Shown here: positions 20,089 to 37,647 of the stretch, piece by piece
How the letters are laid out: each line of letters starts with the position of its first letter
Numbering within the stretch: the first letter of the stretch is position 1
NCBI GenBank assembly: GCA_903858915.1
Contig: CAIOKL010000278.1
Span: 1-38,811 of the forward strand
DNA from: an uncultured Alphaproteobacteria bacterium
GTDB lineage: Bacteria > Pseudomonadota > Alphaproteobacteria > Rickettsiales > UBA1997
Direction of reading: 5' to 3'
DNA: 38,811 bases
Notes under the pieces: generated by a model
What the model was told of the DNA's origin: nothing
The model's database searches: none
The model's input: only the letters and a program-made list of their open reading frames with translations
Position numbers and translations under genes: made by a program

Positions 20089-20285
20089 TTTGATAAAAAT
20101 TCTTTGATATAAAGATAAAAATTTGCCGACAAATCTACTTTAAAAAAATCCAAATAACAAGAAAAAATTTATTAAAAAAATCTTACAAAAAAAATGCTAA
20201 AATAAAATCAAAAACTTACTTGTCTTATAGAAAAAAAAGGTTAAAATTTAATAGTTATTTTTAATTTCATAAATTGCATTTTTTC

Positions 20286-21665
20286 ATGAATAAATTTATC
20301 GTTTACGGCCTAGGAATTTCAGGGATTTCGACCGCTAAAGCACTTGCCCAAAAAAACTTTGAAGTTACTGCAACCGATGATAATCAAAGGCTAATAGAAG
20401 ATGATGCTCAAAAATACCCAGAAATAAATTTCAAAAACTGTTCTGAAATTTCTTTCGATAAAGACACCAAAATTTCATTTGCTCCCGGAATCCCTCTGCA
20501 CTTCCCAAGGCCACATAAAATTCTCGAAATTTGTCAGAAAACTCAAGCGCAATTATCGTGTGATATTGAAATTTTTTACGAATTAAATCACTTAAATAAT
20601 AATTTTATTGGCATCACGGGAACTAACGGCAAATCAACGACTACAGCCTTAACTGGCTTCATTTTTGAGAACCTAAAAGTGCCATCAAAAATTGGCGGAA
20701 ATATTGGTATTGCTTGCTTCGACTTGCCACAAAATCAAAATAATTTTAACTACATTTTAGAAGTTTCTTCATATCAACTTGATTTGATGAAAAATGTGCG
20801 TTTTAACATCGCATGTCTTTTGAATATTACGCCCGATCACATTGATCGCCACGGCTCTTTTGAAGAATATATTCACTCCAAAAAAAGAATTTTTTTGAAT
20901 CAAAATGCGCAAGATTTTGCCGTAATCGACATTGATAATCCGAACTCCGCAAAAGTTTTTGCAGAATTAAAAAATAATCAAAATTTTCAAGCAAATTTAG
21001 TTGAAATTTCTACCGCAAAAATTCCGCAAAATGGCGTTGCGGTTATTGAAAATAAAGTTTTGGTAAATTTACAAAATCAAAAATTTGAATTTGAAATTAA
21101 TCCAATTTTAAAGGGTAAACATAATCACCAAAATATCGCTTGCGCTATTGCAATTACTTGTTGCTATCTCATTAAAAATGCGCAATTTAATCAACAAAAA
21201 ATTCAACAAATTATTAAAATTATTGAAGAATTTAAAGGCTTAAAACACCGTATGCAATTGGTGGGAGCGGTTGATGGAATTAGCTTTGTCAACGATAGCA
21301 AAGCTACCAATGCCGAATCAACCGAAAACGCATTAAAATCTTATGATAATATTTTTTGGATTTTGGGCGGTAAAGCCAAAGAAGGCGGAATTGAAAGCCT
21401 CAAGCCCTATTTTTCAAAAATTCAAAAAGCTTATTTAATCGGTGAAGCTTCCGATGAATTTGCTAAATTTCTTGCGCAAAATTTCGTAAATTATGAAAAA
21501 TGCCAAACACTTAAAAACGCTTTCGATAAAGCTTTGATCGATGCAAAATCATCAAATTTAATTGAAAAAAACATTATTCTCTCACCCGCATGCGCTTCAT
21601 TTGATCAATGGAAAAATTTTGAAGAGCGCGGTGATTTTTTTTGTAAATTAGTAAATGATATTTAA
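20286..21665 (+). CDS. murD: UDP-N-acetylmuramoylalanine--D-glutamate ligase
   Basis: N-terminal VYGLGISGIS and Mur ligase P-loop GITGTNGKSTT. The ORF-track start at 20274 is TTG; I prefer the ATG at 20286 (MNKFIVYGLG). Confidence 0.92.
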   Translation: MNKFIVYGLGISGISTAKALAQKNFEVTATDDNQRLIEDDAQKYPEINFKNCSEISFDKDTKISFAPGIPLHFPRPHKILEICQKTQAQLSCDIEIFYELNHLNNNFIGITGTNGKSTTTALTGFIFENLKVPSKIGGNIGIACFDLPQNQNNFNYILEVSSYQLDLMKNVRFNIACLLNITPDHIDRHGSFEEYIHSKKRIFLNQNAQDFAVIDIDNPNSAKVFAELKNNQNFQANLVEISTAKIPQNGVAVIENKVLVNLQNQKFEFEINPILKGKHNHQNIACAIAITCCYLIKNAQFNQQKIQQIIKIIEEFKGLKHRMQLVGAVDGISFVNDSKATNAESTENALKSYDNIFWILGGKAKEGGIESLKPYFSKIQKAYLIGEASDEFAKFLAQNFVNYEKCQTLKNAFDKALIDAKSSNLIEKNIILSPACASFDQWKNFEERGDFFCKLVNDI

Positions 21666-24600
21666 AAAAATTTATACATTTTTAAACAGTTACTTCAATG
21701 GAAATAAGCTTTCCAAAGCCCTTTGGACGCTTATTTTTATTTTTACCCTCGCCTTTTCGGGCGTTTTATTTTTTACAGTTAAATCTATTGCGCGAACTGC
21801 AGCTCAACAAGAAGCTATAGCAGAACTTGCTAGTCAGGGGATTATTTACGGCGAAACTGAATGGGAAGCAGAGGAGAGGGAGAGGTTAGCGGCTGAAAAT
21901 GCGAGAATAGCTCAAGCTGCTTCATCTCTAACTTTAACAAATATGAACACCGCGCCAACTGTTAGTTATGTTTCAAGTGGGTTTTCGGTCGATAAAGTAA
22001 ACGAGTTTCATATTTTATATCAAAAACAAGGTCTTCTAGATAATAAAATTTATACTTCATATTTACCTCCCAAAGATACTTTTAACAAAGACACAGGGAC
22101 TGAACACACTCTTGATCCTTGTCTTTATTTGGGTCAGAGTGGACTTAAAATGATCGGAAGAGATTGTATGATCAAAATTCCATTTGACTGCGGAAGCCCT
22201 CCAAATCAAATAACGGCAAAACCGGGCGAAAATTGCCTTTCATATTCGGCCGTATTTAACACCATTTCTGGTGGCAAAAAACTTGATCCAAAAAATTGTT
22301 CCGGTGTTGGCGCTGTAGATAAAACCAATTGCTTATCAACGCAAAGACCTTATTGCCACCTTACTCAAAACCCAATACTTGGAATTAATTGTAGACTTGC
22401 GCCGTGTAATTTAATTCCAAATCATCAATATCGAAGACCCGGAGTTAATTGTTTGGCGGATTGTAATGATATTTCGGGAATCCATATTTCCGAAGCACAA
22501 TTTTTTATGGAAGGTTTTAATTGCTTATCTTCTTGCCGAACTTCTACGCCAAAATCAATTGGGGCAAATTGCGTTTTAGAGTTCAATGATTATGTAATGC
22601 CATTATGTACTGTCATCGATGCAAACACAAAACATTTTAACCTAACCACCGATCAAACTAGAAGAGAGGGATGTTTAGATGTTATCGATTTGCCTCTCTG
22701 CGTAGGTGGTGGCGATCAAGAACTTCAAAATTGTGTTAAAGAATGCAATGCCGTAACTTCTGGTAGTCACAATAAAAATTGTGTTAATTTTGATCAACTA
22801 TCGAGCGCTAAATATAATGGATATGTAAATAAAAAATGCCATAGTTATTTTGACATAACCAGTTTGGGCGCGAATCCAAATTGCACTAAAATCGAATGTG
22901 ATAAACTATCAATTACAGAATTAGCCAGATCTCTTAATATATTTGATGTTACGGAGAATCGAAAATATTGTACTCTTGCAAAATATACAAACTTTAGTAT
23001 CGCTCAATTTTATGCAATAAATTCTATAGAACCTTCTAAAGCCTATCTCAGAGAATATGCTTTGGCGGATAAGCCTTGCTATTCTAGAGGAGATACCGAA
23101 GAAATTGAAACAATTCTCAGTAGCGCTTTTTTTGGTAGCTTCGGTAATACCAAAATTGCATATTTAAAAGCTCACGCCAAGAGTAAATATAGCATTGAAA
23201 ACATTACAGTTTCAGATGAACAAGTTACCAAGGGGCATGCAGATTTTGTTTCAGATTACATTTATGCACCCGAAAGCATGTGCCATGTAGACAACGCCTC
23301 TCAAATGATCTCGTGCGAAAATTATAAAAGAAGCGAAATCCCCACAGCTCCTTACGATTGCAATGCTAAATCTTTTTGTGCGAATTGTCCGCAGACAATA
23401 ACTGGTATTTGCTCTCAAGAATCAGATCAATATTGCTATAAAAATGGCATAAATTGTAATAGTTCAATTAATCAAATTTATCCGGTATGTTCAAGAACTC
23501 TTGTGGCGGAATCTAGACCTACTTCTGACGAATATGTTTCTTGGTTCTTCAGGCCAAATGTTCCGGGGGATGCCATAAAAACTAATAATACTAATACAAC
23601 GACTTCTTTAGCTGCTATGAGTGGTTATCCAACCGAAAGCGTTACTACTAACAATCCTAATGAAACTATCTACATGAATATAGATAATATGAAAGCAAAT
23701 GGATACGGAGCAGACTTCTTAGGATTCGGAGTTAGTCGACGAATAACTCCTCCATCTCAAGGTATGGATATGGGAATTCCCGGTGTTGGAGCTGGATATA
23801 TTTGCGGAATGGGAGGAAATTATCGCGGAGTTCCAAATAATGATTCCGCTTATTTTAGAGGTGAAGTTCAAACCAATTATGAAATGGACGGAAAAGTTTC
23901 GCATGCTGTAGATGTTTGTATTAGATATGCAAGTGGATCCAATGCATTACAAAGTTGTGGATATAGAGACTGTCATAGTTCTTGTGCCTTCGGAATTTGT
24001 ACAAAAATATGTGGAATCGATGTTTGTAGAACTCTAAAAATAGTAGAAGGTCCAAATGTGCCGATTCAAAATTGTGGTTCTAATGATTATAACTTTAGAA
24101 ACGGCAATGGTGCCGAATGTGTTAAAACATACCAAACAAGTCTTGATGCCGTTAGTGAAAATACAAGAGTTAGAATTTATAAACCAGATGCTAGTAATTA
24201 TATATGCGCCGTTCTTGAATTTCATGGTATTACAACGGATCTTCAAACAAACCCATTTTTTAATGGAACGGAATATTTTTCGGTACCAGATCAAAATAAT
24301 AAAGGTGAAGCTAGAAAAATTTGCGTTAGCGGAACTTATGTAAAAAGTTCTGATTCTTGCGTTAATGGTATCGACTCAAATGGTGACAAAGCTAATTCAA
24401 ATACTTGGAGAACTTCCAAAATAATTAAATATATCATGGAGCCGTCGGTCGATAACTATATTGATCAATATGGCATCGGTCCAGTTGATTTAAGTTCAAA
24501 ACATACCGATCCAGAAACCAAAAAAGAAGTTAATCAAACTATTGGTAGAGTTAATTTTAATGTTAAAAGATACTTTGAAACTTCGGATTGTATTAAACAT

Positions 24601-27600
24601 AAACAAAGAATTGGTGCGCCAGTTTACCATTCTGTAGCTACAATTATAAATTCAGAAAGGCTTTTTTTGCCATCTATTATTATTGAAAAAAAATGTAAAA
24701 TTGCATCATTGGGAACTGAGTGTGAAAATGTTGATGAAACTGATTTTTTTAAACCGGCTATTTTAATTTTGTATGGTGGAAAAGATGTTTCTAGCTCAAT
24801 ACTCTCTGATGATCCAAGCACTCTAAACACCAACTACAAAATTCTTAAAATTGATGCTACAGAAAATGTAAGCGCTGATTATATCATAAAAGCTGCTAAT
24901 TTTGGAATTTCGGGAATAGATGTTTCTCAAAGAGTTTTTATTAAAAAAGAATTTTCTGCCTCTCAACCTAAATTATGTTTGTATAAAAAGACTCCTATGG
25001 GAACTAATCCCGAAACATACAAAGAAGACATTATACAATGCGTAAATAGAAAAAGAGCGACTAGAGGTTTGATTCAACCCGCCGTAGTCGTACCAGCTCA
25101 TACCAATCTTTCATTTCAAACGGGCTTTTTAAAAAACGAAGGAGCTTCACATAATTCAATTATTGGAGAATTGCCAAAGCAAGAATTCCAATTTATCAAC
25201 ATGACAACAAATATAAGAAATAAAGAGGATTTAAAAAAATGTATTGATATTACTAGTCAGGGCTTCCCAATTTGCATTCAAAGAGAAGAATGCTCTCTTC
25301 TTAACAATGAATGTGTTGAAAATGAAAAAGCTTTAATTATCGAAAAAAATAGTGCCAATCCACAAATTGGAATTATTCAACAAAAAGAACTTACTAGCAA
25401 TTATTGCAAAAAAGAACTGCTTGCAAAATGTAATTCGAAAAAAGGTTATGCACTTACCGCTTCCAATCAAACTTTAAACACTTCAACAACTCAGGGCGTA
25501 GGTTTTAACGCAGAAAACAATCCCGCATATCACGGTTGGTTTAATGAATTTTGCATTGTAAGTGGCATAGAAAAACTCGATGACCCAGCTTCAAAAGTAT
25601 ATGTACTAACTCAGATTAATACCGATGGGCAATTAGGGTCTTGTATTAAAGATAATAATTGTGCAACTTGTAACGATCTTCGTTGTTTGAAAGCTAGCTG
25701 TTGTGCGATATTAGACGCTACTTTATTAAGCTCTGCGTCAGCTCGATTAGCAACTTCGCACGAACTTGGTTTATGTTATAATCTAGACAGTTATTTAAGA
25801 ACTTGTTCCGCAATTTCATATGGAAAAAATAGCGATATAAGTGATCCATTTTTTATCGGAGAAAGTTATTTAACTAATCCCCATCAATCGCATATAGACA
25901 GATTCAATTCATCGCCTTATCGCAGTTTCAATGCGGAATATGAAGTAGCTTATGCCGGCACCAGTTCTGTAAAAGGAAAATGCGTTGGTTTTTATAAAAA
26001 TGCAATTTCAGATACCGATCCAACGGCGAATTGTAATGCGAATGGAGAATGGGAAGGCTTTACCGAATCCTCATGCACAATGTATACTTGTCCGACTAAA
26101 AAACTGCCATTAGGCAATGGTGGCGCCGATTTAAATGGCGCATATCCTTCAGATTATGATGCGAGTGGAGTGCAACTATCTTCAAAAAGAGGCGTTATTG
26201 ACGGATATGCAAATTGGGAGTCGTTGAAAAAAACCACTATTCAAAAACAACAAGCGACGGCGACTTCATGTATTGTTGGATTTGCCAAAAAAAATGCCTC
26301 ATTTAATTCTAGCCAAATAAGCTTGGCCGAAGTTTCTCCAAGTGTATTACTCTCCTCATTTAATAACTATAAAGCAACTTTAAATCCTGAAGATCAGAAA
26401 GCGATTTTGTCGTTATTTAGCAAAATTAATGGCTATTCGGGCGGAAGCTCTCCAACTAGAAATTGTAATCAGCTTGGTTCTTGGGAATCGGTAACGGATT
26501 CTTGCGAAAGAATAACCTGCCCTCCCATTAAATTTACTGAGTCAGCTGATGCGGGCGCATTTAATTTGAATGATTATGATTTGACAGTAGCTGATTCTTC
26601 AGGTCAAAAAATTATTTATAGTATAAATTCTCCATACGGATCTTCAAGTGGCGACTTACCAACAAAAGCCAAATTTTTAACAAGCGTCGCTATAAATGCT
26701 CCGGCTTATTTATCGGTTACAAACAGCATGGATGCTTATAAATTTTTGATTAAAGATTCGGATGGTGTAAACAATGCCAGCATAGATAGAAATAAAGTTT
26801 ATGTAGTTGAGATTTCTGCGGGTAGTTGGAAAATAATTCCAAACCAAAATGATGATGTTTTAAAAATTTTGTGGCAAAAATCCGGCGGTGCTTCTTTTGA
26901 TAAAGGTTACGCTTTGCGAAGTAATCTATTTGATTACGAACCGACCGATGATCCCAATGATAAACACAGAGTCATTGGAACATGTAATGAAAAAATGGGA
27001 TTTAAATCTTTATCGCAAGAATCTAGACCTCAACTTACATGCGACTCAAGCGGTAATTGGGTAAATCTTTCAAATCCTTGCGTTACTGATTGCGGAGCGA
27101 TTTCCGATCCTGTGGCTAGAAACGCTATTCACGGATTTTCACGGTGGTTAAAATCAACTGCCGTAGTTGGTCAATCGAAAATTGAAACATCTAGTGGTTG
27201 TTCTGCAGGTGGTTATCAGCCATATCCATATACGCCATTATTTGACGAAGAAGGAACAAAAAAAGATTTTGGAATTGGTGCGAACGATAGAGAATTTATT
27301 ACATCCGATAACTTCGATGCTATAACCGTTTCAAATGACGGAGCCAATTTTATTGCGCAAGCTGGAACTGGAGAAAACTTAACTCCGTCGGTGAATAATA
27401 TTGATGGAATTTATTACAATCTTAAAATACAAACCTCGGTTTCCGATGTTCAAACATCCGCTTTCAGCTCAACTCAAGCTGGCGTTCAAACTGTATTTTA
27501 TTTATTTGACAGCGCGCAAAGACTCAGTATGTCTCCTCCTTCTAATGCGGTTTGGTCAAAAATTAATTTCTCAAGTTTCGGCACTCCCGACTATTCCATA

Positions 27601-30600
27601 AAAGGCAATGTTGTTGAAAACGCATCTTGCCGTTCGCCTTATTCTAAATTAATTTTCGCTAATAAATGTATTGGAAAAACTAATTGCTCCGTGGGTTTGT
27701 CTGATTTTACAAATTACGATAGTACCAACACTTGCAACCAAACAAATCCTGGCAATGGAGTAAATGGTGAACAAAATGACACGGTTATTAGCTATGGTTC
27801 GGGCGGTGGCGGTGGCGGTGGCAATAATGCGGGAGCTGGAGGCGCTCCAACGAGTTCAATAAATATAAACGGCATTTCGGGAAGTTCATATTACGATAAA
27901 GCATTTCATGTAACTCCGCCAATTCTATCAAATGCGTTAAATAATGGTGTCAAAGTTGATTTAAAAGTGGCTGATACCGGTCAATTCATCGGCAAAAATG
28001 GTTCGGTTAAAATTATCGAATCAACAACTTCTAGTTTCTCAGCCCCGAGAGAATCTAATTACACTTCACCAGGAGAGAATACTCACACCGTTACAGCGGG
28101 TAGTTCTGGACAAAATATTTATATCAAATATGAAATGAGTGGCGCGGGTGGCGGTGGTGGCGGACCAGGTTTGAATCAAGGAACTGACGGCGCCAGCGGA
28201 ACAAAAATGACCAATGGAGTTTTTGTGGTTAAAAATGGCACTATTTTAAAAATTTATGTCGGCGGTGGCGGTGGCGCTGGTAAAACTAAGTGCATTACTC
28301 CGTCAGGGGGTGGAGCGTTTTTAGATCCTAAACTATTTCAACCAAATAACAATATTTTTGCTTACAAAAAACCCGAAAGCAATTTCCTAGTTAAGGCATT
28401 AAGAGGAATCGGATCGATGTTTATTTCTGAAGGTTGGGCGGCGGCTCAACTAAGTTGTTATTTTTATAATAATGTCTGGTCAGATGGATATAGTCCGATT
28501 CTTGTTAATCAACTCGTTAATACTGGCTCATACTCGGCATTAAAATTAAAATGTTATGGATCTTTATCATTTTGTATATGTAGCACCTTTACATGTTTAA
28601 ATAATATAGAAAATACAACAACTTATAATACACAAATAGATCCAAGCGATACACCAATATCGTTGAGATGCAAAGATGGTTATAGAAATAATGGAGAAGG
28701 ACCAAAACTTACTTGCAAAAGAAATTTAACCAATCCTTCGATAAAAGATGAAATCCCAACTGGGAGTTGCATCGCAAATGAATGTTATCTTGATTCATGG
28801 ACGGGATTTAGCCATGGAACTAATATCGTTGAAGGAGCTGGTGCTCTCAATTGTAGTCCCGGCTATACCGCTAGTACTTCACCGGCACCTGGTTATTATT
28901 GCGGAGCTGATGGTTTGAATCAAGGGATCCGTGCGACACAGGTAGGATCTTGCACTCTAAATTCTTGTACGCTTAGCGGAAGTGCATATTCTAATGCAGG
29001 AAGTGTTTCTGGATCTGGTGCAATTAATTGTAATTCTGGTTATACTGCTAGCACCTCTCCAGCGCCAACTTATGTTTGTAATACAAATAGTGGTCCCGCA
29101 ACAGTTAGTGGATCTTGCACTCCAAATTCTTGTACGCTTAGCGGAAGTGCATATTCTAATGCAGGAAGTGTTTCTGGATCTGGCGCAATTAGTTGTAATT
29201 CTGGCTATACTGCTAGCACCTCTCCATCGCCAACTTATGTTTGTAATACAAATAGTGGTCCCGCAACAGTTAGTGGATCTTGCACTCCAAATTCTTGTAC
29301 GCTTAGCGGAAATGCATTTTCTAATGCAGGAAGTGTTTCTGGATCTGGCGCAATTAGTTGTAATTCTGGCTATACTGCTAGCACCTCTCCATCGCCAAGT
29401 TACTATTGCGCAACAAATAACTCTGCCTCAGATGCTACAATTTTAGGATCTTGCACTCTAATCACTTGTTCTTCTAATGCAATTACTGGATTTTCTAGCA
29501 AAACTATAAATTACACAACAGCAGTTACCTCTGATGTTGCTTGTGATTCCGGTTATTCGGGAACGGTATCTTACGGTCCTTGCACTACTCAAGACGCATC
29601 ATTAACTGTTAATGGAACTTGCACCGCAAACCAACCATGCTCAATTCCTGCTGGAAATGGACATGGAGCGCTTGAGATTGCTCCAACTGGAAGTAGAAGT
29701 GGAAGCATTACTTGCAATGCCGGTTCTGGTTACACTGGTTTGGGCGATTTAGCTTATTCTTGCGGTTCGAGTGCTACACCAAAATATACGGGAAATTGCA
29801 ATTGCGCCGCTGGATATTCTAGAGAAGAAACAAATATAGCAAATAGCGCTTGCAATCCAATTTTTTGCATTGCGGCCATTCCACCGGGCGTGACTCAAAC
29901 AGCAGATACAATAAAAATATCAAAATTTGCAAGTTTTACTACAAATAATGTAAATTTCAATGTTATTTATTTGGATATAAGGCAATTTAATACTGAAAAT
30001 TTTAATAATGCAAATAAAATAACAAAAATTATATTAAACAATTATTTATTAAATGTTACTTTTAGAGCTTCGGATAGGTATAATGTTATGTACAATGTTT
30101 CTAATAATGCAATAGTGGATTTAATAAATTTGAGTGCTATAAAACTTAGTACTATAGATAGTGGTTATTATTATTATAATCTTTCAACGAATGATTCCAC
30201 AGCTTTTATTTTTGGTAAAAGTTTAAATTCTGGTGACACTTCTTTAAGTTGTGATAAAACTGGTTATTTAGGAAGCGTCAATTACAATTGTACAACTAGT
30301 GGATTTTTATTTGCCCTTGGAGCTGCAACGAATGCAACTGATAAGAATTCTTGCCCTTGCGATACCGCTGCTAATAATTATACTAAATTATCAGATGGGA
30401 CTTGCGCTAAAATCGAATGCACCATTAATAGTGGTACTGCGGGATTTGTAAGTGGTACTAAAATTCCTTATAACACCTCAACTTCAACAAAAAATTGCAA
30501 CGATCCGCTTTACAATAATTCTCTGACAGCAGATTTCCCAGCTTGTACTAGCATAGCAAATGTCACTCCCATTGCAAATGGAAATGGATGTCAAAAAATT

Positions 30601-33600
30601 TCTTGCTCAACCACAGGAAAAAATGTAAATGTAACGGATAATACAATATATAGAAAAATTAACTCCGCGGGAGTTGATGAGGAGCAAACTTTAACTTGCG
30701 ACACTGGTTATTCAAATGGAGCATCCACGACAATAAGCGCTAAATGTTTAGCAAATATGGTTAATGGCGTTCCTACTACAGGTGCTTTAAGCAATATTGT
30801 TGGAACTTGCTCCGCAATTACTTGCACTGCGCCTCTGGCGAATGGTTATTCAGCTAAAACTGGCTTACCTTATACCGCCTTAATTGGAGCTGGGACAATA
30901 TCATGCGATACAGCCGGTTATAGCGGAAATGCCAATTACACTTGTCAAACTAAAGATGCCGATGTAACCATTACCAAAACTTGCGATTGCGCCACGGGTT
31001 ATGCTAAAAATGGAAGCGGAGTTTGCGTTAAACCATGTACAATTTCTGATGGAAATGGTTATTTAGGAAAAACAATTAATGCTACAGATTCTAGAACAGG
31101 AACTATTACTTGTGGTGGCACTGGTTATTTTACCACTTCGTTTGTCAACTATTCTTGTGATGATGCCGGAACGCCTACAATAGGTGGAAGTTGCACTTGT
31201 GCTTCTGGCTACGCTAATACCTCCTCTGATAGTGCTTGTAAGGCAATTAAATGTCAAACTAGTGCAACCGGATTTAAGGCGAACACCGAAATTTCTTATA
31301 GTACTTCGGTGGCAAATTACTTTTGTAATGATCCGCTGTATAATAATACCGTAACCACAGCTTTCCCAGCTTGCACTGTTCAAGGAAATTTCCTTTCAGC
31401 AATAGCAACAGATAATTATTGCCTTGCAAATAAAATTTCTTGTTCAACCGCAGGAAAAAATGTAAATGTAGCGGATGATAAAATATATAGAATAATTGAC
31501 GCCACGGGAGTTGATCAAGCGCAATCTTTACTTTGCGCTACGGGTTATTCGAATTCGGGAAGTGCAAATATATCAGCTACATGTATTCCGGAAATGTTTG
31601 ATAGAGGTGGAGTATTAGTTCCGAAAACAGGATCTTTAGCTGTTACTGGCACTTGTAATCTAATTACTTGTTCTGCGCCTCCAATCACAACAGGAATCTC
31701 AAAAAACAAAGGTTACAATCCGCTTAGTTACACGGCGTTACCATATTCAGCGGGAGAAAATAATTCAACAATTGCTTGTTCGGGACCAAATTATAAAGGA
31801 TATGCCGGCTATACTTGTACGGCCTACAATTCATTTGCAACGATTACCTCAAAATGTGCTTGTGGTGATGGTTATTCTGAAAATTCTTACGGAGATTGCG
31901 TTGCAATTGTTTGTTATGCTGATGCTGCCAAAGGATATTTAGCAAAAACCGGCTTAAATTATTCTACAGGATCTGGAACAATTGCTTGTGATCAGACTGG
32001 TTATGGTGGAACTGTTAATTATACTTGTACAGCTAATGGTAAAGTTGGTAGCGTTGAAGTTTGCGGTTGTGCCACTGGTTATGCTAAAGATGCAAACAAA
32101 GATTGCGTTAGAATTACTTGTGATATTCCTGCCGGCAATGGATTTAATGCCGGCAAAATTGAATATACAACAACTCAGTTAAATTATTCTTGTAACGCGA
32201 CAGGTTATCGAACCGATACAACCGCTCTTTTTTCTTGTTCAGATAATGGTGTTAGTACAACGGGGAAACTTGGGACAGGACTTAATTCTTGTCTAAGATT
32301 AACTTGCGATATAGATCGGGGCAATGGGTATTCGGCAAAAAGTGGTTTGTATTATTCTACAACAACTAATGGTTATATAGCATCAAATGGCATATATTCT
32401 TCTACAGGAACTGGAACGATCGCTTGCGATCAAACTGGTTATAGCACTGGAACGATTAGATATATTTGTGAAACTCATGGTCATAAGGCAACTATAGTTA
32501 GTGGTGATTCTTGTGCTTGCGCTCCAAATTATTATAAAGATACATATGGCGCTTGCGTTCCGATGACTTGTACTTCAGACACTGATCCGGTGGTGATAGA
32601 AAAAACAGGAGCGATAGAAACAAAAGATTTGCCAATAACAACAAATGGAACGATAGCTTGCGAAACGACTGCTCACACAGGAACCGCAACTTATACTTGT
32701 TCAGAAGATACAACGCGAACACCTCGTGTTGCGAAAGGAATTTTTACAATTGTCACTCCTTGCGCTTGCAAAACTGGTTATGAAGAGAAAGAGGCTGTTT
32801 GTACGAAAATAAATTGCGGAATATTGGCTTCCACCAGTCCAGGATTTGTAGATACGACAGCTCCTTATAGCGCCATCAAAGTAAATTATTTCTGTAACAA
32901 TCCATTGTATGATAACACTGTTTCTGTTGAATTTCCAGCTTGCACAACTTCTGCAGGAATTAATTATACGCCGAATACTGCAACTTCGCCAGCGACTAAT
33001 GTTTGTAAAAAAATTAGTTGTACAATTCCCGCAGATTATCATGTAACACAAACTTCAATATTCGCTAGCGCTTCTAGTGAAAATTTAATATGCGCTACAG
33101 GTTATTCAAATGGATCATCCACAACAATAAGCGTTAACTGCTCGACGGTAAACGCTCAAAGAACTAATTATGATTTAACAATAAGTAGTGTTCCGAAATC
33201 GGGATCTTTAAATAATAAAAATGGGAGTTGCGCTCGATTAGCTTGCACTGTTCCAGCTGGTTCAAATACAACAAAAGACGGAACCTTGGTAGATTTTACG
33301 GGAGATACCACAACCTCTTTAAATTGCATTACTGGCTATGCCGGATCCCCAACTTATACTTGCAAAGGAACTACTACTGCAGTTTATGCGTCCTCCGGAA
33401 CTCCTTGCGCAAAAATTACTTGCACCGTTCCAACTGGAATTACTGGATTTGATTCTGGTACAACTGGTATAGAATTCGGAACTTTTGATTATTATTGCAA
33501 TACCGAAGGTTTTCAAACTTCCACCAAAGCAAATTTTTCTTGCACTGCTAATTCCACTAATCCAACAACAAGCACTGTAGGTACATTTTCTCAAATCTCC

Positions 33601-36600
33601 AACAGTTGCGCAAGAATTACTTGTTCAGCTGATGCTAACAAAGGTTATTCAGCTAAAACTAACTTACCTTATGCCAAAGATGTACTCGGAACAATTGCTT
33701 GCGCAACGCCTAATTATCAAGGAAATGCAAATTATACCTGCACAACTCATGGCGTAACTGCAACAATCACCTCGGCTTGTCAATGTGGAACGGGCTATGA
33801 AAGAAACGCCTACAATTATTGCGTTCCAATTACTTGTAACATTCCAGCTGGAACGGGTTATACAGCTCACTATAGTTTGGATTATACCGGAGCGGGCGTT
33901 TCACGGGATTTTGATTGTGATACCGAAGGTTATTACGGAAAAGTTTCTTATATATGTCCGGGCGGTGGCGTGCGGGCTACTTATACCGATACTTGCACAA
34001 GAGTAAAATGTAATTTACCGCTTAGCGCCAATTCAAACATCGTACCTACAATGGTAAGTGGAAGTGAATATAGAGAAGTTGATTATTCCGCGACTCCTAG
34101 AGAATACACTTGCGGAAGTGGTTTTAGAAAAACACTTGATCTTAATTATGCACAATTAAATCCTACTTACACATGCGTTAAAAATACTAATCTGGCGCAA
34201 CAAAGTAATCCTTCGACGGTTGCTGTTCAAAATGCTTGCGTTGAAATTACTTGTACCGATCCATACACCAATATTACTTATTCATTTAATGGCGGGCAAC
34301 CTCAAATATTTCCTTGCGATACTTCGCGAGGTCTTTGGGGTGAGTCGGAATTAAACTGTAACGAAGCCGGAATTGTTACTAAGACTAAATCCTGTTATAC
34401 GGTGAAATGTTTAATTCCAGCCGATAAAAACACTTCCAGAGACGGAGCTCTTGTTGATTTTTCGGTTGATTTTTTTGGGCTAGATTGCAAACAAGGTTTT
34501 TATTATGAAAACGCAACTAGACCTAAATATAAATGCATTTACACAGCTAATGAAGCCGTTGTAAATCGTGGAGCGTTGACTTTCGAGGGAACTTGTCAAA
34601 GAATTACTTGTACAATACCGACGGAAGGAATTAACTCATTAAATTCAGTTCTCGATAGCACCAGCGTTAATTGGAATGGCGCTGATTACATTACTACAAG
34701 CTGTAGAGAAGGATTCTATCAATCGAATCTAGCGTTACCTCCTAAATATTCATGTTCGGGAGCTAATCCAATTGGCGAATTGAGAGTCATGAATCCTTGC
34801 GCGCCAGTAACTTGTGATCTTCCTGAGCGCTTTGGAATGTTAGCAAAAACTAATTTAGAATATGGTCAAGGAAAGACTACTAGCTGTAACAAATCAGGGT
34901 ATTTTGGAACCGTTACATATAATTGCGTCACCCCAATTACTTTAGGAAAAGGAGTGACATCGGTGGCCTCCTCAACTTGCGTAGAAGCGTCTTGTGTCGC
35001 AAGTGGAAATGTCGTTGCCACATTTAACACCTTCGTAAGTTCTGGATCAGGTGGAGCGGGTGGAATTGGTGGAAAAATTAGCGACCCAATTGCATTTTTA
35101 AGAGGTGGAAATGGTGGAAATTCAACAACTTCGCGCACCTCTGGTTCGGGCGGTGGCGGTGGTTCAGCTTCAATGATTTCGATCGAAAATAGAATTATCG
35201 CTATAGCTGGCGGTGGCGGTGGCGGAGCTGGTGGCGGTGGAGTTGAAAATGCTACAAACGCTTTAACGAAAATTAGTAATACCGAAGATTTAAATGTCAG
35301 ATTAATTGCCAATGTTTTTGGACCTTATTTTATTGGCGAGATGCAATATTCTCCAATCAACATTACGCCTCAAAAAACTACCGGAATTTTATATAATCAA
35401 GCCTCATATCCAGATCCTTTTTCATTAACAATTCCAGGCGGAACCTTCATTAATGATATTTTCTTTGCTTCATACGGAAGTCCAACAATAGATTTTACAG
35501 CTCCCGAATCTTTGATTTTGAAATATGGAACTTGTAATGATTCAAGTTCGTTAACGCAATCAATCAATCAATGTAGCGGTAAATCATCCTGCATAATCAA
35601 TACTAATTCATTTTCTAGATGCCAATCTGAAGCTTCTAAAAAATTTGGTTTAGTTGCATCTTATTATTATCAAGAGCCAACTCTTCAAGTGATAAACTCA
35701 GCGGGACTTCCTGCTTATAGTTTAAAAGAACGCTACAATAATCAAACTATTCCAGCAACTAATATGAGCAATGGTCAAGTTTATACTTTCTTATTAAACA
35801 AAGAAGATAATATTTGGTTCAAATATCCTTATTTAGCCGATGAATATTTAATCTCAGAAGCTGTTTCTGGTAACAAAATTAAAATTAAATTTCATAGAAC
35901 AAACACCACCTTTTCTCCAAGATTAAAAATTAACGGAATATCTTCTACAATTTCAAAACTAGATGAATCGGGACAGCCTATTTCTCTAAGCGTTGGTTAT
36001 ATTAATCCTACTAAAATTTATATTTTAACTAAATATTCAGATAGGTGGATAATAAGAGAATATATCTCTCAAGAAGTTGCTGGAGCATTGCCGAGTGGAG
36101 AGCGGGTTCCTCCTAGTAGAAGCTGTATGACAAACAAAATCTCTTCGACCGGGGCTGTTAATGTAATGTGGAGTTTACCAAATTCTTCTTGTATAAACAG
36201 ATGTCCAGGATATAACATGAGGGATAACATTGGTGATGATAGAATTGGGGTTGGAGCAACAAAGCATTCAACTTCAGCGGGTGAAGGTATAGTTTATTGG
36301 AGTGATACATTGCCAAACAATTGGAGTTATAAGAAATTTAAATCGAATGTATCCAGTTCTGACGCTAACGGTAGGAAGGTTTTTCAAGAAACTGAAGATA
36401 CTCTTACTCCTTTGAATTTCAGGGAAAATCGTTCGGGACCATATTTTGCATTAGCTAGATTCTGTAATGGAGATGGGTCTTGGAATGCGCCAATTCCACT
36501 TTGTGTTTACAATAATGCAAATTCTACTAATTCTGCCATTACTCCCGTATTGAATGGAACCTCTTATATTTCGGGAGAAAGTCAATCATATCTAAAAGTT

Positions 36601-37647
36601 AATACTGGAGAAGAAGCTATTTCGCAGTGTTTAAGTGGATTTGACAAACAAACGACCGATAGTTATTTAACTGATGGCTCTTCTACATATGAACCGCCTA
36701 AATATAAATGTTTGATGAATAGCAATAATGTGGATCAAACATATTTTGCAGAAGTGAGCGACTCATCAAGAAGGGCATGTGTTAAATATTGCGCCGTTAA
36801 TGATATTGCAGGATCATCTGTTTCTACTGAGAGTAAGAGAGGTATTAAAGTTAGAGCTGGTGGAACAATAGAATTAGAATGCGCTGCAGATTACCTTCCT
36901 CCCATATTGGCAGATGGGACTAGGTCAAATTTAAAGCCATATGCGACTTGCATTAGCGATTATACTGGAACTGTTCTTTGGGCAACGAGTAGTTCTGAAA
37001 CCACAATTGAAAATAAGTGTACATTTGCCAGATCTTGTTATGAATCGAGTTTAACTAAAGATGTTGGTTCTTATACGCGCCAAGCAACTTGGGTAGCAAC
37101 TTGTTGGAAAAGTTCTGCTGACTATTCTGATAAAAGCAACTATTATGATTATAAACAATTCCAGATTGATAATAAAAGTTCACCTTGTCCCGATTCAACA
37201 TATAATTATAAATCTCATGAGCATTATAATGATGAAAATAAGAGTGACTGGTTCCCAGCTAAAAAATTTATTGAATCAAAACATCGATCGGGTTTTGGTA
37301 GTGGTCTAACCCATCCTTTTGTCACCACCGACAGCCAGCATAAAAAATATGGAAAATGTGGATATTGCAAATATGGGGTTGGTTTGTCTTGGTTAGCGGG
37401 TAATGCTCAATGGAATTATGTAAGAAGGTATTTGCAATCATACTCATGTTATGATGGTGCTTGGAGTTTTAATTGGAACAATGTTGATACATCAGAGCGA
37501 AATGCTTGCGATGGCGACAATTGGGATCATCGTGGTTTTTTTGGAGAGAATGGAGAAAATCATCCATCTGAATCGTATCTTGGTGAATGCAAAGGGGACA
37601 GTCAAACTGATACTTTTAATAATTTTAATAACCTTCAAGATTATTAG
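21655..37647 (+). CDS. Giant (5330 aa) membrane-anchored Cys-rich repeat protein with Sushi/CCP-like, EGF-like, SUEL-lectin-like and polyglycine domains; putative surface adhesin or lectin
   Basis: Single uninterrupted frame of 15,993 nt. ATG at 21655 overlaps the murD stop by 11 nt. One N-terminal hydrophobic helix. Periodic cysteine spacing is maintained through the repeat array, which argues for real coding under selection. All other-frame ORFs inside are short shadows. Confidence 0.9.
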   Translation: MIFKKIYTFLNSYFNGNKLSKALWTLIFIFTLAFSGVLFFTVKSIARTAAQQEAIAELASQGIIYGETEWEAEERERLAAENARIAQAASSLTLTNMNTAPTVSYVSSGFSVDKVNEFHILYQKQGLLDNKIYTSYLPPKDTFNKDTGTEHTLDPCLYLGQSGLKMIGRDCMIKIPFDCGSPPNQITAKPGENCLSYSAVFNTISGGKKLDPKNCSGVGAVDKTNCLSTQRPYCHLTQNPILGINCRLAPCNLIPNHQYRRPGVNCLADCNDISGIHISEAQFFMEGFNCLSSCRTSTPKSIGANCVLEFNDYVMPLCTVIDANTKHFNLTTDQTRREGCLDVIDLPLCVGGGDQELQNCVKECNAVTSGSHNKNCVNFDQLSSAKYNGYVNKKCHSYFDITSLGANPNCTKIECDKLSITELARSLNIFDVTENRKYCTLAKYTNFSIAQFYAINSIEPSKAYLREYALADKPCYSRGDTEEIETILSSAFFGSFGNTKIAYLKAHAKSKYSIENITVSDEQVTKGHADFVSDYIYAPESMCHVDNASQMISCENYKRSEIPTAPYDCNAKSFCANCPQTITGICSQESDQYCYKNGINCNSSINQIYPVCSRTLVAESRPTSDEYVSWFFRPNVPGDAIKTNNTNTTTSLAAMSGYPTESVTTNNPNETIYMNIDNMKANGYGADFLGFGVSRRITPPSQGMDMGIPGVGAGYICGMGGNYRGVPNNDSAYFRGEVQTNYEMDGKVSHAVDVCIRYASGSNALQSCGYRDCHSSCAFGICTKICGIDVCRTLKIVEGPNVPIQNCGSNDYNFRNGNGAECVKTYQTSLDAVSENTRVRIYKPDASNYICAVLEFHGITTDLQTNPFFNGTEYFSVPDQNNKGEARKICVSGTYVKSSDSCVNGIDSNGDKANSNTWRTSKIIKYIMEPSVDNYIDQYGIGPVDLSSKHTDPETKKEVNQTIGRVNFNVKRYFETSDCIKHKQRIGAPVYHSVATIINSERLFLPSIIIEKKCKIASLGTECENVDETDFFKPAILILYGGKDVSSSILSDDPSTLNTNYKILKIDATENVSADYIIKAANFGISGIDVSQRVFIKKEFSASQPKLCLYKKTPMGTNPETYKEDIIQCVNRKRATRGLIQPAVVVPAHTNLSFQTGFLKNEGASHNSIIGELPKQEFQFINMTTNIRNKEDLKKCIDITSQGFPICIQREECSLLNNECVENEKALIIEKNSANPQIGIIQQKELTSNYCKKELLAKCNSKKGYALTASNQTLNTSTTQGVGFNAENNPAYHGWFNEFCIVSGIEKLDDPASKVYVLTQINTDGQLGSCIKDNNCATCNDLRCLKASCCAILDATLLSSASARLATSHELGLCYNLDSYLRTCSAISYGKNSDISDPFFIGESYLTNPHQSHIDRFNSSPYRSFNAEYEVAYAGTSSVKGKCVGFYKNAISDTDPTANCNANGEWEGFTESSCTMYTCPTKKLPLGNGGADLNGAYPSDYDASGVQLSSKRGVIDGYANWESLKKTTIQKQQATATSCIVGFAKKNASFNSSQISLAEVSPSVLLSSFNNYKATLNPEDQKAILSLFSKINGYSGGSSPTRNCNQLGSWESVTDSCERITCPPIKFTESADAGAFNLNDYDLTVADSSGQKIIYSINSPYGSSSGDLPTKAKFLTSVAINAPAYLSVTNSMDAYKFLIKDSDGVNNASIDRNKVYVVEISAGSWKIIPNQNDDVLKILWQKSGGASFDKGYALRSNLFDYEPTDDPNDKHRVIGTCNEKMGFKSLSQESRPQLTCDSSGNWVNLSNPCVTDCGAISDPVARNAIHGFSRWLKSTAVVGQSKIETSSGCSAGGYQPYPYTPLFDEEGTKKDFGIGANDREFITSDNFDAITVSNDGANFIAQAGTGENLTPSVNNIDGIYYNLKIQTSVSDVQTSAFSSTQAGVQTVFYLFDSAQRLSMSPPSNAVWSKINFSSFGTPDYSIKGNVVENASCRSPYSKLIFANKCIGKTNCSVGLSDFTNYDSTNTCNQTNPGNGVNGEQNDTVISYGSGGGGGGGNNAGAGGAPTSSININGISGSSYYDKAFHVTPPILSNALNNGVKVDLKVADTGQFIGKNGSVKIIESTTSSFSAPRESNYTSPGENTHTVTAGSSGQNIYIKYEMSGAGGGGGGPGLNQGTDGASGTKMTNGVFVVKNGTILKIYVGGGGGAGKTKCITPSGGGAFLDPKLFQPNNNIFAYKKPESNFLVKALRGIGSMFISEGWAAAQLSCYFYNNVWSDGYSPILVNQLVNTGSYSALKLKCYGSLSFCICSTFTCLNNIENTTTYNTQIDPSDTPISLRCKDGYRNNGEGPKLTCKRNLTNPSIKDEIPTGSCIANECYLDSWTGFSHGTNIVEGAGALNCSPGYTASTSPAPGYYCGADGLNQGIRATQVGSCTLNSCTLSGSAYSNAGSVSGSGAINCNSGYTASTSPAPTYVCNTNSGPATVSGSCTPNSCTLSGSAYSNAGSVSGSGAISCNSGYTASTSPSPTYVCNTNSGPATVSGSCTPNSCTLSGNAFSNAGSVSGSGAISCNSGYTASTSPSPSYYCATNNSASDATILGSCTLITCSSNAITGFSSKTINYTTAVTSDVACDSGYSGTVSYGPCTTQDASLTVNGTCTANQPCSIPAGNGHGALEIAPTGSRSGSITCNAGSGYTGLGDLAYSCGSSATPKYTGNCNCAAGYSREETNIANSACNPIFCIAAIPPGVTQTADTIKISKFASFTTNNVNFNVIYLDIRQFNTENFNNANKITKIILNNYLLNVTFRASDRYNVMYNVSNNAIVDLINLSAIKLSTIDSGYYYYNLSTNDSTAFIFGKSLNSGDTSLSCDKTGYLGSVNYNCTTSGFLFALGAATNATDKNSCPCDTAANNYTKLSDGTCAKIECTINSGTAGFVSGTKIPYNTSTSTKNCNDPLYNNSLTADFPACTSIANVTPIANGNGCQKISCSTTGKNVNVTDNTIYRKINSAGVDEEQTLTCDTGYSNGASTTISAKCLANMVNGVPTTGALSNIVGTCSAITCTAPLANGYSAKTGLPYTALIGAGTISCDTAGYSGNANYTCQTKDADVTITKTCDCATGYAKNGSGVCVKPCTISDGNGYLGKTINATDSRTGTITCGGTGYFTTSFVNYSCDDAGTPTIGGSCTCASGYANTSSDSACKAIKCQTSATGFKANTEISYSTSVANYFCNDPLYNNTVTTAFPACTVQGNFLSAIATDNYCLANKISCSTAGKNVNVADDKIYRIIDATGVDQAQSLLCATGYSNSGSANISATCIPEMFDRGGVLVPKTGSLAVTGTCNLITCSAPPITTGISKNKGYNPLSYTALPYSAGENNSTIACSGPNYKGYAGYTCTAYNSFATITSKCACGDGYSENSYGDCVAIVCYADAAKGYLAKTGLNYSTGSGTIACDQTGYGGTVNYTCTANGKVGSVEVCGCATGYAKDANKDCVRITCDIPAGNGFNAGKIEYTTTQLNYSCNATGYRTDTTALFSCSDNGVSTTGKLGTGLNSCLRLTCDIDRGNGYSAKSGLYYSTTTNGYIASNGIYSSTGTGTIACDQTGYSTGTIRYICETHGHKATIVSGDSCACAPNYYKDTYGACVPMTCTSDTDPVVIEKTGAIETKDLPITTNGTIACETTAHTGTATYTCSEDTTRTPRVAKGIFTIVTPCACKTGYEEKEAVCTKINCGILASTSPGFVDTTAPYSAIKVNYFCNNPLYDNTVSVEFPACTTSAGINYTPNTATSPATNVCKKISCTIPADYHVTQTSIFASASSENLICATGYSNGSSTTISVNCSTVNAQRTNYDLTISSVPKSGSLNNKNGSCARLACTVPAGSNTTKDGTLVDFTGDTTTSLNCITGYAGSPTYTCKGTTTAVYASSGTPCAKITCTVPTGITGFDSGTTGIEFGTFDYYCNTEGFQTSTKANFSCTANSTNPTTSTVGTFSQISNSCARITCSADANKGYSAKTNLPYAKDVLGTIACATPNYQGNANYTCTTHGVTATITSACQCGTGYERNAYNYCVPITCNIPAGTGYTAHYSLDYTGAGVSRDFDCDTEGYYGKVSYICPGGGVRATYTDTCTRVKCNLPLSANSNIVPTMVSGSEYREVDYSATPREYTCGSGFRKTLDLNYAQLNPTYTCVKNTNLAQQSNPSTVAVQNACVEITCTDPYTNITYSFNGGQPQIFPCDTSRGLWGESELNCNEAGIVTKTKSCYTVKCLIPADKNTSRDGALVDFSVDFFGLDCKQGFYYENATRPKYKCIYTANEAVVNRGALTFEGTCQRITCTIPTEGINSLNSVLDSTSVNWNGADYITTSCREGFYQSNLALPPKYSCSGANPIGELRVMNPCAPVTCDLPERFGMLAKTNLEYGQGKTTSCNKSGYFGTVTYNCVTPITLGKGVTSVASSTCVEASCVASGNVVATFNTFVSSGSGGAGGIGGKISDPIAFLRGGNGGNSTTSRTSGSGGGGGSASMISIENRIIAIAGGGGGGAGGGGVENATNALTKISNTEDLNVRLIANVFGPYFIGEMQYSPINITPQKTTGILYNQASYPDPFSLTIPGGTFINDIFFASYGSPTIDFTAPESLILKYGTCNDSSSLTQSINQCSGKSSCIINTNSFSRCQSEASKKFGLVASYYYQEPTLQVINSAGLPAYSLKERYNNQTIPATNMSNGQVYTFLLNKEDNIWFKYPYLADEYLISEAVSGNKIKIKFHRTNTTFSPRLKINGISSTISKLDESGQPISLSVGYINPTKIYILTKYSDRWIIREYISQEVAGALPSGERVPPSRSCMTNKISSTGAVNVMWSLPNSSCINRCPGYNMRDNIGDDRIGVGATKHSTSAGEGIVYWSDTLPNNWSYKKFKSNVSSSDANGRKVFQETEDTLTPLNFRENRSGPYFALARFCNGDGSWNAPIPLCVYNNANSTNSAITPVLNGTSYISGESQSYLKVNTGEEAISQCLSGFDKQTTDSYLTDGSSTYEPPKYKCLMNSNNVDQTYFAEVSDSSRRACVKYCAVNDIAGSSVSTESKRGIKVRAGGTIELECAADYLPPILADGTRSNLKPYATCISDYTGTVLWATSSSETTIENKCTFARSCYESSLTKDVGSYTRQATWVATCWKSSADYSDKSNYYDYKQFQIDNKSSPCPDSTYNYKSHEHYNDENKSDWFPAKKFIESKHRSGFGSGLTHPFVTTDSQHKKYGKCGYCKYGVGLSWLAGNAQWNYVRRYLQSYSCYDGAWSFNWNNVDTSERNACDGDNWDHRGFFGENGENHPSESYLGECKGDSQTDTFNNFNNLQDY
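21718..21780 (+). other. N-terminal transmembrane helix / signal anchor of the giant protein
   Basis: Residues ~22-42 (ALWTLIFIFTLAFSGVLFFTV) preceded by basic residues (KK, K18, K21). No obvious AxA cleavage site follows immediately. Confidence 0.7.
27553..27735 (+). other. SUEL-type (rhamnose/galactose-binding) lectin-like domain 1
   Basis: WSKINFSSFGTPDY...CRSPYSKLIFANKCIGKTNCSVGLSDFTNYDSTNTC matches the I-x-F-A/S-S-F/Y-G-x-P ... C-x-G-K-x-x-C-x-V ... F...C pattern of Gal_Lectin/SUEL domains. Confidence 0.6.
27796..28320 (+). other. Polyglycine (ALK/LTK-type glycine-rich) domain 1
   Basis: GSGGGGGGGNNAGAGGAP ... YTSPGENTHTVTAGSSGQNIYIKYEMSGAGGGGGGPG..GTDGASG...NGTILKIYVGGGGGAGKT. Beta-strand / Gly-run alternation as in bacterial and phage glycine-rich-domain proteins. 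Encoded partly by (GGCGGT)n hexanucleotide runs. Confidence 0.55.
28945..29439 (+). repeat. Three near-identical in-frame 165-nt (55-aa) tandem repeats
   Basis: The GGATCTTGCACTC... unit restarts at 28945, 29110 and 29275 (exact 165-nt period) with only a handful of substitutions. Encodes GSCTxNSCTLSGSAYSNAGSVSGSGAI(N/S)CNSGYTASTSP(A/S)PTYVCNTNSGPATVS. Confidence 0.95.
30418..32121 (+). repeat. Higher-order (four-module) repeat, two full units of about 834 and 870 nt
   Basis: Unit starts at KIEC (30418) and AIKC (31252). Collinear landmarks are YxCNDPLYNN..FPACT, KISCSTxGKNVNVxDxxIYRxI..GVDxxQxLxCxTGYSN, then two Sushi-like+EGF-like pairs. The best DNA stretch is roughly 85-90% identical by eye. 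Confidence 0.8.
32814..33246 (+). repeat. Partial third copy (first two modules) of the higher-order repeat
   Basis: KINC...YFCNNPLYDNTVSVEFPACT...KKISCTIP...LICATGYSNGSSTTISVNC repeats the first two module types of the 30418/31252 units. Confidence 0.7.
34996..35250 (+). other. Polyglycine (glycine-rich) domain 2
   Basis: FVSSGSGGAGGIGGK...RGGNGGNS...SGSGGGGGSASMISIENRIIAIAGGGGGGAGGGG. Same strand / Gly-run alternation as domain 1. Confidence 0.55.
35437..35670 (+). other. SUEL-type lectin-like domain 2
   Basis: GGTFINDIFFASYGSPTIDF...KYGTCNDSSSLTQSINQCSGKSSCIINTNSFSRCQSEASKKFGLVASYYY closely follows the FASFG-x-P...G-x-C...C-x-G-K-x-S-C-x-(V/I)...F...C...K-x-L-x-V pattern of SUEL domains, for example at the C-terminus of plant beta-galactosidases. 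Confidence 0.65.

Follow-up and report, generated by a model that had tools for sequence, protein, structure and literature searches.

Layout of the giant protein

The window analysed here is the whole 38,811-nt stretch of contig CAIOKL010000278.1, from an uncultured alphaproteobacterium of the order Rickettsiales (assembly GCA_903858915.1). On its + strand it encodes a giant protein of 5,330 aa in a single open reading frame (ORF; 21655..37647). The protein contains 4.7% Cys, and Ser, Thr, Gly and Asn are abundant in its composition. Two Gly-rich segments and two SUEL-like lectin domains lie on either side of a long array of Sushi/CCP-type modules, in an order that appears mirrored about the array. 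The comparisons below suggest that the Gly-rich segments are complementary halves of one Gly_rich_2 domain (PF21722), and it is likely that this domain is split by the whole array as a nested insertion (A1-B-A2) in one loop, with the two SUEL-like domains flanking it.

The distal pair of elements occupies 34996-35670, which is aa 4448-4672 in the frame of the giant ORF. An earlier note had described a Gly run followed by a SUEL-like domain here, and that order, together with the strings GSGGAGGIGG, GGNGG, GSGGGGGSASMISIENRIIAIAGGGGGGAGGGG, FFASYGSPTIDF, CSGKSSCIINTNSF and KKFGLVASYYY, was present in the translation in full. The segment starts one residue past Cys4447, which is separated by the usual 4-residue linker from Cys4442, the fourth Cys (C4) of the last four-Cys module. 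The second part of the Gly-rich host domain covers aa 4448-4584 (34996..35406, + strand) and matched positions 48-148 of a profile of natural uninterrupted domains. Its initial ~15 residues still belong to the insert linker. Gly_rich_2 itself resumes with its second half at aa ~4463-4545, which contains the runs GGAGGIGG, GGNGG, GSGGGGG and GGGGGGAGGGG, after which conserved β-strands continue to aa 4584. The distal SUEL-like domain follows at aa 4589-4672 (35419..35670, + strand).

Upstream of the array, the proximal SUEL-like domain (aa 1956-2030; 27520..27744, + strand) precedes the first part of the host domain (aa 2045-2212; 27787..28290, + strand), which matched positions 16-78 of the same profile. 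This part begins with a lineage-specific N-terminal portion carrying a G7 run (aa 2050-2056) and continues as the first half of Gly_rich_2 (aa ~2137-2210), with Gly runs at aa 2165-2170 and 2203-2207 and KIYVGGGGGAGK at its end. The gap between the two Gly segments measured 2,235-2,237 aa, not the 2,100 aa given previously for the stalk. It is filled by the insert (aa 2213-4447; 28291..34995, + strand), which was recognised by its Cys spacing and by the match of its module profile to CCP structures.

Conservation of the four elements

A search with 5,000 aa of the giant protein yielded 16 orthologs of 3,635-4,343 aa with 38-58% identity, and together with the window protein these made up the set of 17 proteins used below. 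Each of the four elements, when it served as a query, had a counterpart in every one of the 16 orthologs, and their order was unchanged throughout. The array between the elements ranged from 579 to 2,237 residues, a variation of about four-fold. The mirrored order is therefore real, conserved and non-accidental, as the earlier note had held, and the check it had proposed, whether orthologs keep both ends while the number of modules varies, came out positive. Nearly every Gly of the runs was invariant in the orthologs, as was the motif GSGGGGGSASMI..RIIAIAGGGGGG.

SUEL-like lectin domains

The proximal domain matched PF02140 with 29.2 bits (E 1.2e-6) and the distal domain with 22.4 bits (E 1.6e-4), so both copies remained under the Pfam gathering cutoff of 31.4 bits. 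The distal copy had been taken for the better of the two; it was the weaker by every score. Precomputed PF02140 matches were present in 8 of the 16 orthologs. The ortholog profile of the proximal domain matched 5iaz at E 1.9e-7 and CSL3 at 2.9e-3, and that of the distal domain matched 5h4s at E 3.3e-5 and 5iaz at 0.0099. The lectin folds predicted with AlphaFold2 (AF2) were compared with the latrophilin Lec domain and 5iaz, and gave Foldseek probabilities of 0.99-1.0 with TMt values of 0.57-0.65. Within the window, the two lectins aligned with each other at BLASTP E 7e-5, and their ortholog profiles aligned at an hhalign probability of 97.6% (E 4e-12). Judged from these alignments, the proximal and distal lectin-like domains are homologues of one another.

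By profile and by fold, both copies resembled the SUEL/RBL lectins (PF02140), which include CSL3, SUL-I, the latrophilin Lec domain and the C-terminal domain of plant β-galactosidase. They differed from these in scoring below the Pfam cutoff and in leaving the C-terminal part of the profile unmatched. Coverage of the 80 profile positions extended from 7 to 70 in the proximal copy and from 4 to 59 in the distal copy. The DPC and KYL motifs of the SUEL/RBL family belong to the C-terminal part of the domain; with the matches ending at positions 70 and 59, the DPC/KYL region was therefore unmatched in both copies. The distal copy reads FSRC...KKFGLVASYYY and the proximal copy DFTNYDSTNTC, and the SUEL copy of the relative P0029 is canonical (FGDPC..KKLLVKY, 50.8 bits). 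Because the C-terminal part of the profile found no counterpart in either window copy, sugar binding by these lectin-like domains is uncertain.

Probable halves of one Gly_rich_2 domain

The earlier note had read the two ends of the array as the same two-domain unit in opposite polarity. Profile and pairwise alignment supported this for the lectins but not for the Gly segments, which aligned with each other at BLASTP E 1.1 and an hhalign probability of only 2%, over a 21-column poly-Gly match. Direct homology of the two Gly segments was ruled out on these values. The segments instead matched consecutive parts of a single Gly_rich_2 domain, so the reading as one repeated unit in opposite polarity was not supported.

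The PF21722 profile has 226 positions and a gathering threshold of 24.3 bits. The proximal segments of orthologs matched it at E <= 1 in 8 of 12 cases, with 18-24 bits and over positions 3-74 only, and the distal segments alone had no Pfam match. When the proximal end and the distal segment were joined, they gave one PF21722 stretch over positions 3-149 with higher scores, positions 75-149 being covered by the distal half, and the joined halves passed the threshold in three of four orthologs (25.5-30.3 bits). The score rose from 20.4 bits for the proximal segment alone to 30.3 bits for the joined halves in P0009, from 24.1 to 28.7 bits in P0012, and from 22.9 to 25.5 bits in P0014. In controls with P0009, the proximal half followed by a shuffled distal half scored 18.2 and 15.8 bits, and swapping the order of the halves gave 16.5 bits. 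Neither the P0009 distal half alone nor a shuffled proximal half followed by the distal half matched PF21722.

Two unrelated low-complexity poly-Gly stretches might imitate such complementarity through their composition, and some results agree with an artefact of this kind. Poly-G words flooded a word-indexed search with the joined-halves alignment, and not even the orthologs scored. The distal half lacked a Pfam match when taken alone, and in P0009 the proximal half followed by a reversed distal half still reached 25.1 bits. Since the reversed half still added about 5 bits, part of the gain, although not all of it, is due to the spacing of the Gly runs. The window protein itself gave no PF21722 match at E <= 10, either with its separate Gly segments or with the joined halves, and its membership in Gly_rich_2 is thus carried by the orthologs and the natural relatives.

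A chimera-free test was made with a 165-position profile built from only three natural uninterrupted domains (P0029, P0032 and P0033), which was run on the 17 natural giant proteins. All 17 were matched in two complementary pieces, each with an independent E-value (i-E) between 1e-7 and 1e-16. The piece before the array covered profile positions ~15-76, and the piece after it covered positions ~72-146 in most of the proteins. Composition would not account for matches that are position-specific and complementary throughout the set, nor for the loss of score in the shuffled controls. The non-Gly motifs SASMI..RIIAIAG, FL.GGNGG and KIYVGGGG.AGK were, moreover, invariant in the orthologs and common to the natural contiguous domains. 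We therefore regard a composition artefact as very improbable. On the evidence of these profile matches, the two Gly segments are homologous to consecutive parts of the natural Gly-rich domains and most likely represent complementary halves of one Gly_rich_2 domain.

Gly_rich_2 occurs in proteins of bacteria and phages, many of them components of tail fibres or virions, and the domain in the window protein shows the same succession of Gly runs and short β-strands. It differs in being broken after profile position ~75 by 580-2,237 residues, in carrying another G7 run within an additional N-terminal part, and in being flanked on both sides by SUEL-like domains.

Natural relatives and repeated use of one loop

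An exhaustive phmmer search with the joined halves of the window protein against 1.84 billion representative proteins returned 23 matches. Three natural proteins aligned across the junction within one HMMER domain, namely P0029 (E 7.8e-12), P0032 (E 6.9e-5) and P0033 (E 1.7e-4). All three have a loop of ~5-17 residues at the site where the window protein has 2,235. P0032, a protein of 238 aa, matched PF21722 above the threshold (32.8 bits, positions 15-199). In P0031 (504 aa), the first half (PF21722 positions 6-86) was followed by an insert of ~135 residues and then by the second half. This insert (aa 81-218) gave a weak PA14 match (E 0.009) and occupies the same loop as the Sushi-type array.

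A further elaboration of this scheme was seen in P0023 (3,387 aa), in which aa 600-2910 contain four first halves followed by four second halves in the order A A A [AB] B B B. The innermost first half was contiguous with its second half, and SUEL-like domains were interleaved. This is the order that repeated nesting would be expected to produce. A TrbL/VirB6 type IV secretion domain was matched at aa 2701-2907 of the same protein with 52.6 bits. As a separate observation, P0023 is lipoprotein-like and resembles a VirB6-like giant whose periplasmic or external part is nested like a Russian doll.

These relatives bear on the proposal that the window protein carries two independent lectin-plus-Gly caps at opposite ends of an extended stalk, with a function as two separate heads for binding, or in bridging or cross-linking. 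Such a protein would be expected to show what was seen in several respects: the mirrored order is kept in 16/16 orthologs, the lectins are homologous, and CCP arrays are usually extended. In P0029, in addition, a distal-type half follows a lectin and no partner is visible. However, P0029 has the tail of P0023 in common and is a fragment, cut short at the N-terminus, of a P0023-like protein. In such a protein each second half is preceded by first halves, so the apparently lone second half of P0029 probably has its partner upstream of the fragment. No complete protein with only one kind of half was found among the relatives. The Gly segments, which should be alike in two equivalent caps, are not homologous; they cover consecutive and non-overlapping parts of one domain profile in 17/17 proteins and stand adjacent to each other in natural proteins. 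Two independent caps are thus quite unlikely, and the protein is less plausibly a bridge that spans the whole stalk than a two-lectin, possibly bivalent, head, which we consider plausible.

Predicted structure of the host domain

The AF2 model of a fusion of the window's SUEL domain and first half with its second half and SUEL domain, with full-length orthologs as the alignment, had a predicted local distance difference test (pLDDT) score of 73.9 and a predicted template modelling (pTM) score of 0.63. A fusion of the Gly segments only gave a pLDDT of 73.4 and a pTM of 0.73. The alignment used for the second AF2 model was imperfect, since MAFFT had put P0029 and P0033 out of place. In the Gly-only fusion, most of the first half (82-98) and the MISIE/IIAIAG strands in the second half had pLDDT values of about 90 or higher, and values under 50 were confined to the surroundings of the first G7 run and of the junction. 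Comparison of the Gly-only model with predicted viral structures gave matches to Gly-rich phage proteins of tail-fibre-like type, at E 7e-9 to 2.5e-4.

Two known systems offer a comparison. The glycine-rich domain of ALK and LTK (PF12810; 7LS0, 7LRZ, 7NX1), in which polyglycine-II (PGII) helices are interwoven with a TNF-like sandwich, resembles the window domain in its long conserved Gly runs and β-strands; this is a resemblance and not membership. ALK and LTK did rank first when the Gly-only model was searched against the PDB, at values that were not significant (Foldseek E 0.27-0.8, probability <=0.05, TM ~0.1). PF12810 was matched only by an artificial B+B construct (11.9 bits, E 0.22) and by none of the natural segments. 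Membership in the ALK/LTK family was considered unproven, given the non-significant Foldseek result and a PDB profile search that contained no ALK match.

The second system is the tail-fibre adhesin gp38 of phage S16. Its PGII sandwich, as reportedly found by Dunne and colleagues in 2018, displays variable receptor-binding loops. The likeness of this adhesin (6F45) to the window protein lies in the concept only, that of a rigid Gly-rich platform whose inter-strand loops bear the variable binding parts (PMC12227593). The loops of gp38 are a few residues long and do not hold a 31-module array, and gp38 did not appear among the matches. Natural PGII bundles are few, and include those of springtail ("snow flea") antifreeze proteins, Obg, acetophenone carboxylase, the phage S16 adhesin and ALK (PMC12227593). 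The host domain of the window protein is probably likewise built on packed PGII-type strands.

The Sushi/CCP-type insert

The insert begins with an orphan Cys (Cys2213) and a conserved linker of ~50 aa with an amphipathic helix, continues with about 31 modules, and ends with a second orphan Cys (Cys4447). The modules have four or six Cys with the spacing C-(21-40)-C-(12-21)-C-(12-30)-C and are joined by C4-x4-C1 linkers; about 9 of them carry an extra CxC...C extension. The Pfam Sushi profile (PF00084) gave no match over the array at E <= 0.1. A profile of 20 modules, on the other hand, matched CR1 (E 2.7e-7), DAF (6.8e-7) and factor H (1.3e-5), and its matches to CCP structures, including beta2-GPI, ranged from E 2.7e-7 to 1e-3. 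"Sushi-like" thus seems a fair description of the modules. Like the CCP/Sushi arrays of complement receptor 1, factor H and DAF, they have four Cys, a length of 50-80 aa and 4-residue C4-C1 linkers. In contrast to those arrays, the window modules lack a conserved Trp, with only the four Cys invariant in the alignment, and the array is bacterial and nested in another domain.

The insert was 579-1,196 aa long in the orthologs and 2,235-2,237 aa in the window protein, and the number of C4-C1 linkers was about 10-20 in the former and 32 in the latter. A tandem repeat with a unit of 165 nt, equivalent to one module, was found at 28945-29439 (2.8 copies, 97% identity), with a duplication at 28945-29402, and the array also contained block repeats of ~830-837 nt (30495-30746 and 31323-31583). 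The tandem and block repeats indicate recent growth of the array by module duplication, which would explain why the window protein has 2-3 times more modules than any ortholog. An assembly artefact was ruled out as the source of the long array, since the modules have diverged from one another apart from the single 165-nt tandem repeat.

Further features of the insert were noted in passing. One module holds a 182-aa Asn-rich, Cys-free segment (29866-30405, aa 2738-2917) containing NVNFNVIYLDIRQFNTENFNN, unlike the other modules. Just past the first Gly half lies a conserved amphipathic segment, NFLVKALRGIGSMFISEGWA (28381-28440, aa ~2243-2262). Judged by eye, the amphipathic segment occurs twice in P0001, and a beta/gamma-crystallin-like stretch follows the second copy.

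Proposed closure of the loop and the scale of the insertion

In the layout SUEL - half 1 - [array] - half 2 - SUEL, the mirror symmetry would be a by-product of nested insertion. If a single chain supplies the whole host domain, its folding would bring both ends of the array together, and the array would form a closed loop or hairpin and not a free rod. The two SUEL-like domains would then sit side by side on one Gly-rich hub, from which a variable, duplication-expanded loop would emerge as the likely ligand- or host-facing part. Such a hub with two lectin-like domains might serve as a bivalent binding platform.

The codons of the orphan Cys at the two ends of the insert lie at 28297-28299 (Cys2213) and 34993-34995 (Cys4447). 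Both residues were present in 14 of the 17 proteins and both absent in the other three (P0014-P0016), and the Cys count of the insert was even in 14/17. A disulfide bond that closes the base of the loop between them is possible.

Nested domain insertion is itself a known kind of arrangement, and it is the scale that is unusual here. Domain insertions are common, and typical inserts are compact, 50-200 aa long and smaller than the host, with termini ~10-15 Å apart (PMC13114784). Several levels of nesting are also on record; cyanobacterial RNA polymerase, for example, has six (PMC13114784). In topology the window protein agrees with the nested insertions described there (PMC13114784), with a break in the sequence of the host and a host fold that is presumably retained. 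The host is broken once, and both of its parts are colinear with uninterrupted homologs. The rule that the insert is smaller than its host and has close termini does not extend to it, as an insert of 2,235 aa stands in a host of ~230-300 aa. It differs from the reported cases (PMC13114784) in an insert about 10 times the size of the host, made of rod-like modules with ends pointing in opposite ways.

Several points weigh against a single-chain nested insertion, in addition to the gain from a reversed half and the lack of a PF21722 match in the window protein itself. Rod-like CCP modules are poor inserts by the usual rules of compact size and close termini (PMC13114784). The covariation of the orphan Cys probably reflects a single evolutionary event in one clade, and for this reason it is weak evidence. 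The AF2 models, judged by pLDDT and pTM, are artificial fusions, which force the halves together, and serve as supporting evidence only; the loops of the distal half reached a pLDDT of only 50-77. A profile search of the PDB found no solved structure for the Gly-rich domain by sequence, and the ALK/LTK ranking given above was not significant.

The split domain might also be completed in trans, between molecules. The protein would then form antiparallel dimers, in which a hub is rebuilt at both ends, or polymers joined head to tail on the cell surface. The complementarity of the halves fits this arrangement as well as it fits nested insertion, and it would rescue the picture of a hub at both ends. 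Completion in trans would also avoid the need to bend a long rod-like array back, as the close-termini rule would demand (PMC13114784). Direct evidence for it is lacking, and the inserts of ~580 aa in P0014 and P0016, like the conserved pair of orphan Cys, fit closure within one chain. For nested proteins with four first and four second halves (A^4B^4), P0023 among them, nesting in one chain is the simpler reading. CCP arrays are, moreover, flexible enough to fold back, as in factor H. We consider completion in trans unlikely, although it is an alternative to be reckoned with, and infer that the halves pair within a single chain, as expected for the nested insertion.

The locus and neighbouring genes

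A Kyte-Doolittle scan of the whole 5,330-aa protein found a single hydrophobic segment, an N-terminal anchor at aa 22-40 (nt 21718-21774), with a value of 2.24 against 1.27 for the next best, and no membrane segment between the two Gly halves. Because this segment is the only one, the giant protein is predicted to be extracytoplasmic, either N-terminally anchored or secreted. In the Cys-rich N-terminal 1,950 aa, for which there is no other assignment, the Pfam profile Ephrin_CRD (PF25599) matched at 25963-26076 (aa 1437-1474) with 27.8 bits, against a cutoff of 27.

The window has a low G+C content of about 32-40%, and its genes include murF, mraY, citramalate synthase, ccmC, a truncated purL, murD and purE. 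The end of murD (20274-21665) overlaps the start of the giant ORF (21655) by 11 nt, which places the giant gene directly after a cell-wall synthesis gene. An exact look-up of this murD gave no match, probably owing to a different choice of start codon. The order murD - giant - purE was also found in GCA_005787525.1, the locus of the P0009 ortholog, beside ankyrin-repeat genes. The purL ORF (18949-20088, - strand) is only 379 aa long, and its match to the PurL model, which has 723 positions, covers positions 1-363. A transglutaminase-like ORF comes next. The short form of purL recurs in the P0009 ortholog locus, so its truncation or split is conserved. One relative is encoded in a metagenome-assembled genome labelled "uncultured Rickettsia sp."

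Implications

A literature search found no description of these giant proteins or of the biology of bacterial Gly_rich_2. One rather doubtful extension of the nested arrangement is a molecular clasp, in which the halves would shut the loop of ~31 modules into a topologically closed ring or lasso. With a contour of about 100 nm or more, such a ring might surround or trap a structure of the host. In another form of the clasp, the halves would pair between molecules into antiparallel dimers or a surface lattice. Nesting in the same loop, as in P0023, would then point to a general, so far unrecognised, Rickettsiales-like way of building giant modular surface machines on poly-Gly hubs.

The nested insertion accounts for a puzzling sequence symmetry by a simple rule, and it shifts the predicted shape of a conserved giant protein from a two-ended rod to a hub with a variable loop. 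Relative to the reported rules of domain insertion (PMC13114784), the protein would be an extreme outlier that keeps the topology and breaks the rules of size and geometry. The Gly_rich_2 family gains a possible role as an insertion-tolerant scaffold in which one loop is reused, as in P0031 and P0023, and becomes linked to SUEL-type lectins and to a VirB6-like secretion protein. The giant protein belongs to uncultured, Rickettsiales-like intracellular bacteria.

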